This document shows, piece after piece, positions 6,731 to 7,267 of a stretch of DNA of 7,698 bases; the stretch's first letter is position 1; every line of letters begins with the position of its first letter. Both the position numbers and the translations under genes were made by a program. Under the pieces are notes generated by a model that worked only from the letters and a program-made list of their open reading frames with translations, made no database searches and had not been told where the DNA came from. This DNA is from a virus (Duplodnaviria; Heunggongvirae; Uroviricota; Caudoviricetes): IMG/VR virus record IMGVR_UViG_2684622670_000020. The stretch is one strand, 5' to 3'.

Positions 6731-7267
6731 ATGACAAAGCTGACCATTAACCGAAAACCGAAAGGCATTTACGGCACGCCGCAGAAAACGACGCAGGCGG
6801 CGCAAGAGCAGGATAAAACCACATCGGCGCATAAAGTGATACCCGGCAATCAGAACGCACAGCAGAGCCGCAAAGGACAGCCCACAGGGGTGACACCGTG
6901 GCGGCATATGACCAAACGCCAGCGCAAAAACCGCAGACGCGTTAACCGCCTTATTGAGCTGTGGCCTGAATTATTCAGCCGGAAAACACCGAAGCCGCTT
7001 AAGGTGGGGATATTCGACGACCTGATACAGGATATCGCCGCCAGGGGGCTGACATTCGGGCCGGGGGCATTACGTGCGACGCTGGCATCTTATGCGCAGT
7101 CTCCGCGCTATTACCGCGCCTTAATGGCTGGTGGCGCACGTTACGACCTGAAAGGCCAGCCATGTGGGGAAGTGACACCACAGGAACAGCAGGAGGCAGA
7201 AACGCGGCTGGCAGCACTGAATGAAAAGCGCAAACGTCAGGCGACAAAGGAGAAGACAGGCGCATGA
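6731..7267 (+). CDS. FinO/ProQ-domain RNA-binding protein (RNA chaperone family)
   Basis: Residues 75-160, LIELWPELFSRKTPKPLKVGIFDDLIQDIA...LRATLASYAQSPRYYRALMAGGARYDLKGQPCGEVTPQEQQEAETRL, match the ProQ N-terminal/FinO domain pattern (PKPLKIGI..DL......LR.AL..YT.S.RYL.....GA.R.DLDG.P.G.V). It is preceded by a 75-aa basic, Gln-rich extension. ATG 6731 follows GGGGAAGG. Confidence 0.75.
   Translation: MTKLTINRKPKGIYGTPQKTTQAAQEQDKTTSAHKVIPGNQNAQQSRKGQPTGVTPWRHMTKRQRKNRRRVNRLIELWPELFSRKTPKPLKVGIFDDLIQDIAARGLTFGPGALRATLASYAQSPRYYRALMAGGARYDLKGQPCGEVTPQEQQEAETRLAALNEKRKRQATKEKTGA

Follow-up and report, generated by a model that had tools for sequence, protein, structure and literature searches.

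A FinO-family gene carried as an optional cassette by a PICI-type satellite

Results and discussion

Gene organization of the satellite

The window, i.e., the whole stretch of 7,698 nucleotides analyzed here, begins in the 3′ end of gcd and contains the left-hand portion of a PICI-type phage satellite of E. coli, which is inserted beside this gene (Table 1). Its genes are arranged in the order int, AlpA, Arc-like repressor, Icd-like, DUF4222, RepA-type helicase, iteron origin, SSB, FinO-like, and PerC, and all are directed rightward except the Arc-like repressor ORF. The set of features by which PICIs are recognized, namely an integrase, AlpA, a replication module with its origin, and one common orientation, was found in the window. 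A first-pass annotation had placed the FinO-like gene in a satellite replication module, and the gene indeed lies at the replication end of the island. The iteron array between the helicase gene and the 93-aa ORF is probably the replication origin of the island; a 77-aa ORF at 5791-6024 is spurious, being created by the array. The 309-aa ORF between integrase and alpA showed no Pfam or NCBIfam match, and phrog_7144, which it matches, has no assigned function; it could be a cargo or regulatory gene. The int-alpA RNA family (RF02996), likewise without an assigned function, is represented by a copy between the integrase gene and this ORF.

At its right end (7698), the window breaks off within a small gene located ahead of the capsid gene in relatives. 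The closest complete relative, in E. coli Br_190_kylling (L001), occupies the same gcd-hpt site with an identical integrase and continues with capsid, prohead protease, portal, connector, HNH, TerS, and TerL genes and no tail genes, which matches the set of gene classes listed for capsid-forming PICIs (PMC13612085). Judging the remainder from L001, the host element is most likely a capsid-forming PICI, of which the window covers the left part only.

The FinO-like gene is situated in the long rightward operon, after the replication genes and before PerC and the packaging module. It had been described as lying next to rep and ssb. This holds for ssb, which is separated from it by a 36-nt gap, and is loose for rep: the helicase gene is located two genes upstream, with the iteron origin and the 93-aa ORF in between. 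The stop codon overlaps the perC start codon as ATGA (7264-7267), by which perC is translationally coupled to the FinO-like gene. No terminator-like site was found on the + strand between ssb, the FinO-like gene, and perC, which, together with this overlap, fits co-transcription.

Table 1 Features of the window and positions of the candidate RNA targets.
Feature	Position	Strand	Remarks
Tyrosine integrase gene	526-1800	+	Island end
int-alpA RNA motif (Rfam RF02996)	1809-1875	+	55.2 bits vs gathering score 35.8
309-aa ORF	1892-2821	+	phrog_7144 (E=4e-36)
AlpA gene	2917-3243	+	Pfam
Intrinsic terminator (candidate target)	3272-3291	-	8-bp GC stem then UUUGUUUUAU; z=-2.8
Arc-like repressor ORF, 59 aa	3381-3560	-	PHROG 228, E=2e-6
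Icd-like gene	3694-3891	+	ORF list
75-aa ORF	3884-4111	+	ORF list
DUF4222-start block (candidate target)	4103-4150	+	Hairpin CTGGC-N6-GCCAG at 4133-4148
DUF4222 gene	4117-4416	+	ATGA overlap with helicase gene
RepA-type (AAA_25) helicase gene	4413-5819	+	Pfam; replication module
Iterons AAAAGTGGGGAGTA	5817-6022		At least 7 copies, both orientations; putative replication origin
93-aa ORF	5991-6272	+	ORF list
SSB gene	6269-6694	+	PF00436, TIGR00621; directly upstream of FinO-like gene, same operon
Shine-Dalgarno-like AGGGGAAGG	6721-6729	+	Ahead of FinO-like ATG
FinO/ProQ-family gene	6731-7267	+	178-aa ORF; PF04352; fold match; dN/dS 0.22
N-terminal extension (aa 1-67), coding part	6731-6931	+	Basic; aa 1-55 predicted disordered; purifying selection
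FinO domain (aa 68-171), coding part	6932-7243	+	Profile alignment to RocC, FinO, ProQ
PerC-family activator gene	7264-7545	+	PF06069, E=6.5e-36

Identification of the FinO-family protein

Among bacterial RNA chaperones, FinO-domain proteins form a major class. The ORF on the + strand with ATG at 6731 and TGA at 7265-7267 encodes a protein of 178 aa, for which a FinO/ProQ domain had been proposed from the letters alone together with a profile search as the check. This search bore the proposal out: Pfam PF04352 (ProQ/FinO) matched the protein with 89.2 bits (cut-off, 27; E=2.1e-25), and aa 68-171 aligned to profile positions 5-107 of 109, essentially the whole domain. A sequence search of the PDB retrieved the N-terminal domain of ProQ (5nb9, 8e-13), FinO (1dvo, 1e-11), Lpp1663, NMB1681, and RocC, and no matches outside FinO-domain proteins. 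We also built an AlphaFold model with an alignment of 19 relatives as input, in which pLDDT was ca. 86-96 across aa 61-170. When the model was compared with the PDB using Foldseek, the top match was FinO 1dvo (E=1.6e-6; rmsd, 2.1 Å; 106 columns); the other significant matches were NMB1681, RocC, and Lpp1663, and nothing significant was found beyond these four.

The protein scored 67.8 bits with the NCBIfam FinO model (NF010317; cut-off, 136) and 58.5 bits with the ProQ model (NF003434; cut-off, 127), the latter over profile positions 6-116 of 205 only. Since both scores are well under the cut-offs, the protein is neither F-plasmid FinO nor chromosomal ProQ. In the model, it ends ca. 7 aa past the C-terminal helix of the domain, and no ProQ-type Tudor C-terminal domain is present. 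RefSeq already labels the gene as "ProQ/FINO family protein". On the agreement of sequence profiles and predicted fold, the identification of 6731-7267 as a gene of the FinO family is secure, and RNA binding by its product is predicted from the family.

Architecture, predicted RNA-binding residues, and selection

Three parts make up the protein: an N-terminal extension, which is basic and predicted to be largely disordered; the FinO domain; and a C-terminal helix. The long basic extension noticed in the first-pass annotation was confirmed: aa 1-67 have a pI of 11.5 with 14 K/R against 2 D/E (pI of the whole protein, 10.7), and aa 1-55 are predicted to be disordered, after which a KRQRKNRRR stretch runs into helix 1 of the AlphaFold model. 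Its first dozen residues, MTKLTINRKPKG, are nearly invariant among relatives. In 51 distinct alleles, dN/dS was 0.22 for the extension and 0.22 for the domain. Because the two values are equal, the extension is not junk. The gene is thus functional and under purifying selection.

In the RocC-RNA crystal structure, Gly52, Tyr87, and Arg97 form a pocket for the 3′ nucleotide, and a helix N-cap motif of Ser70, Lys71, Lys73, and Arg75, of which the Arg is critical, touches the hairpin (PMC9674577). In the profile alignment, the three pocket residues of RocC correspond to G93, Y127, and R137 of the FinO-like protein; Y127 and R137 were invariant in the 19 relatives and G93 was present in most of them. 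The critical Arg is retained as R115; Gly110 stands in place of the capping Ser, and Pro111 and Ala113 in place of the two Lys of the motif. Glycine is also able to cap a helix. Given the conserved pocket residues and R115, the protein is expected from its sequence to bind the 3′ end of RNA, and its contact with the hairpin may differ from that of the characterized relatives.

Distribution of the gene and its behavior as a cassette

Of 5426 complete E. coli genomes, 1094 had DNA-level relatives of the FinO-like gene, and in 340 the match extended over 80% or more of its length. Every copy in this survey was chromosomal, with 0 on plasmids, and a single genome contained at most 9 matching places. 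At the protein level, relatives came from Escherichia, Shigella, Salmonella, and Citrobacter, and the clade is a narrow one: of the representatives in a library with 50% identity clustering, only 9 matched below 1e-30, as against 2548 FinO-family matches at E≤0.001. The most widespread allele group (P0043) occurs in ca. 4000 blocks of the collection.

We compared 85 loci carrying the gene (FinO+ loci), taken from satellite-size IMG/VR contigs and annotated genomes. The initiator ahead of the FinO-like gene was a D5-type primase-helicase in 41 loci, a DUF927 protein in 24, and a RepA-type helicase in 13, and these three families are mutually unrelated. SSB was the immediate upstream gene in 33 of the 85 loci, and otherwise the origin region directly preceded the gene. 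The downstream neighbor was PerC in 60 loci, its start codon overlapping the FinO-like stop; 20 loci had the small pre-capsid gene there and 4 had a different small gene. Across ca. 150 related islands, the FinO-like gene, where present, was always located between the replication and packaging modules. Homology between islands ended ca. 20 nt upstream of the FinO-like ATG (80 upstream flanks) and around the stop codon. With breaks at both gene ends, the cassette amounts to little more than the ORF.

An independent sample anchored on DUF4222 gave 67 informative islands, of which 8 carried the FinO-like gene; the gene is therefore optional. PerC was present in 33 of the 59 islands lacking the FinO-like gene (FinO- islands), and every presence/absence combination of FinO, PerC, and SSB was seen: SSB-PerC without FinO in the capsid-forming island L095, SSB-FinO without PerC in L001, and neither FinO nor PerC in L094. 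A specific functional pairing of FinO with PerC or with SSB was rejected on these combinations. Over the gcd-to-ssb stretch, switch region included, L094 and the window are ca. 96% identical. In strain STEC313, an allele 100% identical to that of the window resides in a different satellite, at tRNA-Pro, which has a DUF927 primase-type initiator and a different packaging region. The FinO cassette moves among islands that differ in integrase, switch region, initiator, and packaging module. These comparisons of sequences show that the FinO-like gene is an optional, horizontally shuffled cassette.

Related fragments occur in other elements. CP4-57-like islands gave domain-only matches (ca. 80% DNA identity over query bases 163-479), some of which are frameshifted; domain-only or frameshifted copies lie in L008 (9016-9360), L009 (8851-9359), and L093 (8001-8491), and the CP4-57-like islands with such copies carry YfjI, YagK/YfjJ, inovirus Gp2-like, and AlpA genes. 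One domain-only or frameshifted copy is on an IncI-gamma/K1 plasmid. The copies in CP4-57-like islands and on a plasmid point to gene exchange between classes of mobile element. As other observations on the islands, some have a second perC copy near the right end (e.g., L002, 18796-19098), and in L088-L090 (ca. 11500-18900), which represent the P0043 allele group, the FinO-like gene is followed by three large ORFs (ca. 600-920 aa) with no Pfam matches, possibly a satellite module for defence or cargo.

Search for an RNA partner

The protein had been suggested to act together with a putative RNA from the switch region. This suggestion was weakened, since the gene is optional and follows three initiator families, and since the switch regions of FinO+ islands differ, being of the Arc type in the window and of the C4/isrK type or others elsewhere. 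L094, which has the switch region of the window and no FinO-like gene, indicates that no switch-region RNA is co-inherited with the gene. More generally, Rfam scans of 17 FinO+ sequences and the comparison of flanks revealed no known or conserved island RNA that travels with it. The C4/isrK antisense RNAs were rejected as partners, being located upstream of the icd-like gene in only 3 of the 17 sequences (L004, L006, and L011); the window gave no C4 or isrK match in Rfam even at E≤1. The int-alpA RNA is present in the window and was likewise rejected, as it was found in only 6 of the 17. The Rfam scan of the window detected no FinP, and its weak matches to CrcZ and to an R1162-like antisense RNA (3628-3701; E=0.72, with 24.5 bits where the gathering score is 55) were attributed to chance.

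An RNA gene inside the FinO-like ORF was also rejected, as no stretch with suppressed synonymous variation was found there. A low-energy window at 6960-7079 (+) lies within the ORF (z=-3.6); its fold is not kept in the alignment consensus, with a covariation term of -0.21. A terminator-like hairpin in the icd-like gene (3729-3749) was dismissed as a partner, since only near-identical alleles keep it and it is absent in L001 and L021.

Two elements were retained as candidate targets. The first is a block of ca. 50 nt over the ribosome-binding site and start of DUF4222, which is near-invariant in 52 distinct, otherwise diverged genes and is kept ahead of the three unrelated replication initiators. 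Third positions of DUF4222 codons 2-11 were 0.90-1.00 conserved compared with ca. 0.45-0.8 later in the gene. The CTGGC-N6-GCCAG stem was perfect in 36 of 38 distinct contexts, and its loop takes 5 forms; as the stem never varies, it gives no covariation support. It is the only island element that nearly all FinO+ islands were seen to have where the region was available (77 of 88 loci). We considered and rejected an antisense RNA with its end at the start of DUF4222: a minus-strand hairpin and U-tract exist there, but no minus-strand promoter-like site was found inside DUF4222. The block may serve to control translation of the coupled DUF4222-rep pair, or it may be a junction at which modules recombine.

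The second is the minus-strand terminator (3291-3272), the sole strong intrinsic terminator seen in the island, which closes the transcript of the Arc-like repressor. It was conserved in 35 of 66 loci, with one-sided changes in the stem. The DUF4222 block and the terminator also occur in the FinO- islands L094 and L095, and both are therefore only candidates as targets of the FinO-like protein.

Possible roles of the FinO-like protein

Characterized element-encoded FinO-like proteins repress the transfer or replication of their own element: FinO acts on FinP/traJ, FopA on Inc/repZ, and PcnR on a stem-loop in a leader ORF before repA (PMC9977716). Since these three relatives damp their own element and the FinO-like gene is probably co-transcribed with rep, our preferred model is negative feedback on, or tuning of, the island's own replication or induction, which, tentatively and by analogy with FinO, FopA, and PcnR, is the most likely role. 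The overall explanation, an operon-borne, FinO-type stem-loop binder that damps its own island, is given as one reading with a probability of about 0.4. Regulation of island replication, which the first-pass annotation had raised as a role for the gene, is plausible by the same analogy, as is regulation of induction.

According to this model, the FinO-like protein would be made when the island operon is switched on and would bind an RNA stem-loop, by family precedent a terminator hairpin, with the 3′ tail of the hairpin held in the Tyr127/Arg137 pocket. Chaperone activity or specificity would come from the basic N-terminal part, as in FinO. The target might be the hairpin block at the start of DUF4222, whose gene is translationally coupled to rep, or the strongly terminated minus-strand transcript of the Arc-like repressor.

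Self-regulation is supported by the domain, the fold, and the pocket residues, by the purifying selection on both parts of the protein, by the fixed place of the gene after the replication module in 85 loci with three initiator families, by the probable co-transcription of ssb, the FinO-like gene, and perC, by the DUF4222 5′ block, which is constrained beyond its coding and has an invariant hairpin stem, and by the minus-strand terminator as the sole strong one in the island. Against it, nothing outside the FinO-like ORF is co-inherited and the searches brought out no RNA partner; both candidate elements are present in FinO- islands, and only 35 of 66 loci have the terminator; the DUF4222 gene has no internal minus-strand promoter-like site and its block, which lacks covariation, may simply be a junction of recombination; the N-cap motif has lost two Lys and has Gly for Ser; and the gene is dispensable for the island.

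An autonomous cassette that is mobile across islands with different modules makes a role in trans almost as likely as self-regulation. The protein would then bind terminator hairpins in RNAs that the island does not encode, e.g., antisense or regulatory RNAs of helper phages, FinP-like RNAs of co-resident plasmids, or ProQ-dependent sRNAs and mRNAs of the host, and tilt helper, plasmid, or host physiology in favor of the satellite. A target common to all hosts would be the simplest explanation of a self-contained cassette that crosses differing islands, and up to 9 matching places occur in one genome. FinO-domain proteins also adopt "foster" RNAs of other replicons, as in FinO/RepX and RocC/RocRp (PMC9977716). 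On the other hand, those element-encoded FinO proteins that have been characterized bind the RNAs of their own element with high selectivity (PMC9977716), and the domain of the window protein is only ca. 39% identical to that of FinO. Interference with host ProQ-dependent networks, which had been suggested for this gene, is a possibility. That such a mobile FinO-type effector serves as a post-transcriptional weapon in conflicts among mobile elements is a more speculative idea, which we consider unlikely; if true, it would hit the lysis-lysogeny or late programme of the helper, plasmid conjugation, or host physiology, and the effector would be carried by up to one-fifth of E. coli genomes.

Three other explanations are less likely. 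The protein might be a general, ProQ-like protector of 3′ ends or stabilizer of mRNA, acting on the long transcripts of the island at induction with no specific partner. The conserved 3′-end pocket agrees with this, an optional gene fits a role in the tuning of fitness, and ProQ protects mRNA 3′ ends (PMC12086684). However, the island has very few + strand terminator-like 3′ ends on which it could act, and the N-terminal extensions of plasmid FinO-like proteins are thought to narrow specificity (PMC9977716), so that we regard this function as rather improbable. The position of the gene immediately after the origin and SSB in many islands and the very basic nature of the protein would also suit an accessory role in replication, in which the protein, together with SSB, binds nucleic acid (ssDNA, RNA primers, or R-loops) at the origin or fork. 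SSB is, however, missing from more than half of the FinO+ loci, the characterized FinO domains all bind structured RNA (PMC9674577, PMC9977716), and the pocket for the RNA 3′ end is intact, which leaves little probability for this accessory role. A decaying passenger gene with no current function, for which the optional presence of the gene and the frameshifted or truncated copies in other island types (L009 and L008) and in L085 could be cited, is highly improbable in view of the dN/dS over 51 alleles in extension and domain alike, the invariant key residues, and the full-length copies in 340 complete E. coli genomes.

Comparison with known FinO-domain systems

F-plasmid FinO (1DVO) is the best structural match, with ca. 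39% domain identity to the window protein. It resembles the latter in size (ca. 180 aa) and in its architecture of basic disordered N-terminal extension, FinO domain, and C-terminal helix, and both genes are in or near the distal part of the long operon of a mobile element. The window gene differs in that it is chromosomal, within a satellite, with no adjoining tra operon and no FinP/traJ-like partner found in the window; the N-cap motif reads GPGA in the window protein and SHKK in FinO. An N-terminal motif LT[IL]xRK common to both proteins was aligned by MAFFT and was discarded, as BLAST gave no support for it.

PcnR (IncI2) and FopA (IncI1 pCol1B9), compared here by description, are likewise small element-encoded FinO-domain proteins tied to replication control. 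The target of PcnR, a stem-loop in the leader ORF before rep (PMC9977716), resembles the hairpin at the start of DUF4222, a candidate target whose ORF overlaps rep. Their hosts are plasmids, in contrast to an integrated, helper-induced satellite, and no Inc-like antisense RNA was detected in the window. ProQ (5NB9) is the best PDB sequence match and has the FinO domain and pocket residues in common with the window protein, which lacks the linker and the Tudor-like C-terminal domain of ProQ and has the N-terminal extension. ProQ is a chromosomal global regulator of enterobacteria, whereas the window gene is accessory and horizontally mobile.

ProQ/FinO-like genes have been annotated in the Enterobacter PICI AVS0889 and in Vibrio episomal cf-PICI-like elements (PMC13612085, PMC13230959). 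By annotation only, these are the same kind of gene in the same kind of element; unlike the present analysis, the reports contain no analysis of distribution, architecture, or function. In the literature searched, such genes in satellites were mentioned as annotations only, and we found no functional study of them. A family-wide review noted phage- and plasmid-derived FinO homologues in chromosomes and did not mention satellites. The FinO family and its presence in satellites are thus already annotated, and the gene is not a new kind of system.

From a satellite-specific FinO clade, one could learn how PICIs adjust their replication or induction, or by what means they disturb helpers, plasmids, or the ProQ network of the host; should the protein merely copy known FinO biology, it would be a routine addition to the family. 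FinO, FopA, and PcnR each revealed a distinct control of plasmid transfer or copy number. The natural near-isogenic islands with and without the FinO-like gene make this a tractable system.

Other putative regulatory sites in and near the probable switch region

The stretch at 3272-3612 resembles a divergent switch region. A rightward -35 sequence, TTGACA (3554-3559), abuts the start codon of the Arc-like ORF, and an operator-like palindrome, GTGTAATGACACATTACAC, is located at 3590-3608. A minus-strand promoter-like site at 3348-3320 lies just upstream of the terminator and could give rise to an RNA of ca. 50 nt. In the 5′ UTR of the icd-like gene, the position of a hairpin at 3628-3665 (+) is kept in L020, L007, and L001, with a changed inner stem; in islands with a C4 RNA, an analogous hairpin comes after this RNA. 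With neither C4 nor isrK in the window, the region appears to be a protein-repressor version of one that is RNA-controlled in sister islands. The terminator-like hairpin with a U-tract at 3729-3749 (+) (CACACAAACGGCCTTTGTGTG GCGTTTTCT) lies early in the icd-like gene, within its first 20 codons, and is a possible attenuator; its U-tract is partly forced by conserved WRF codons.
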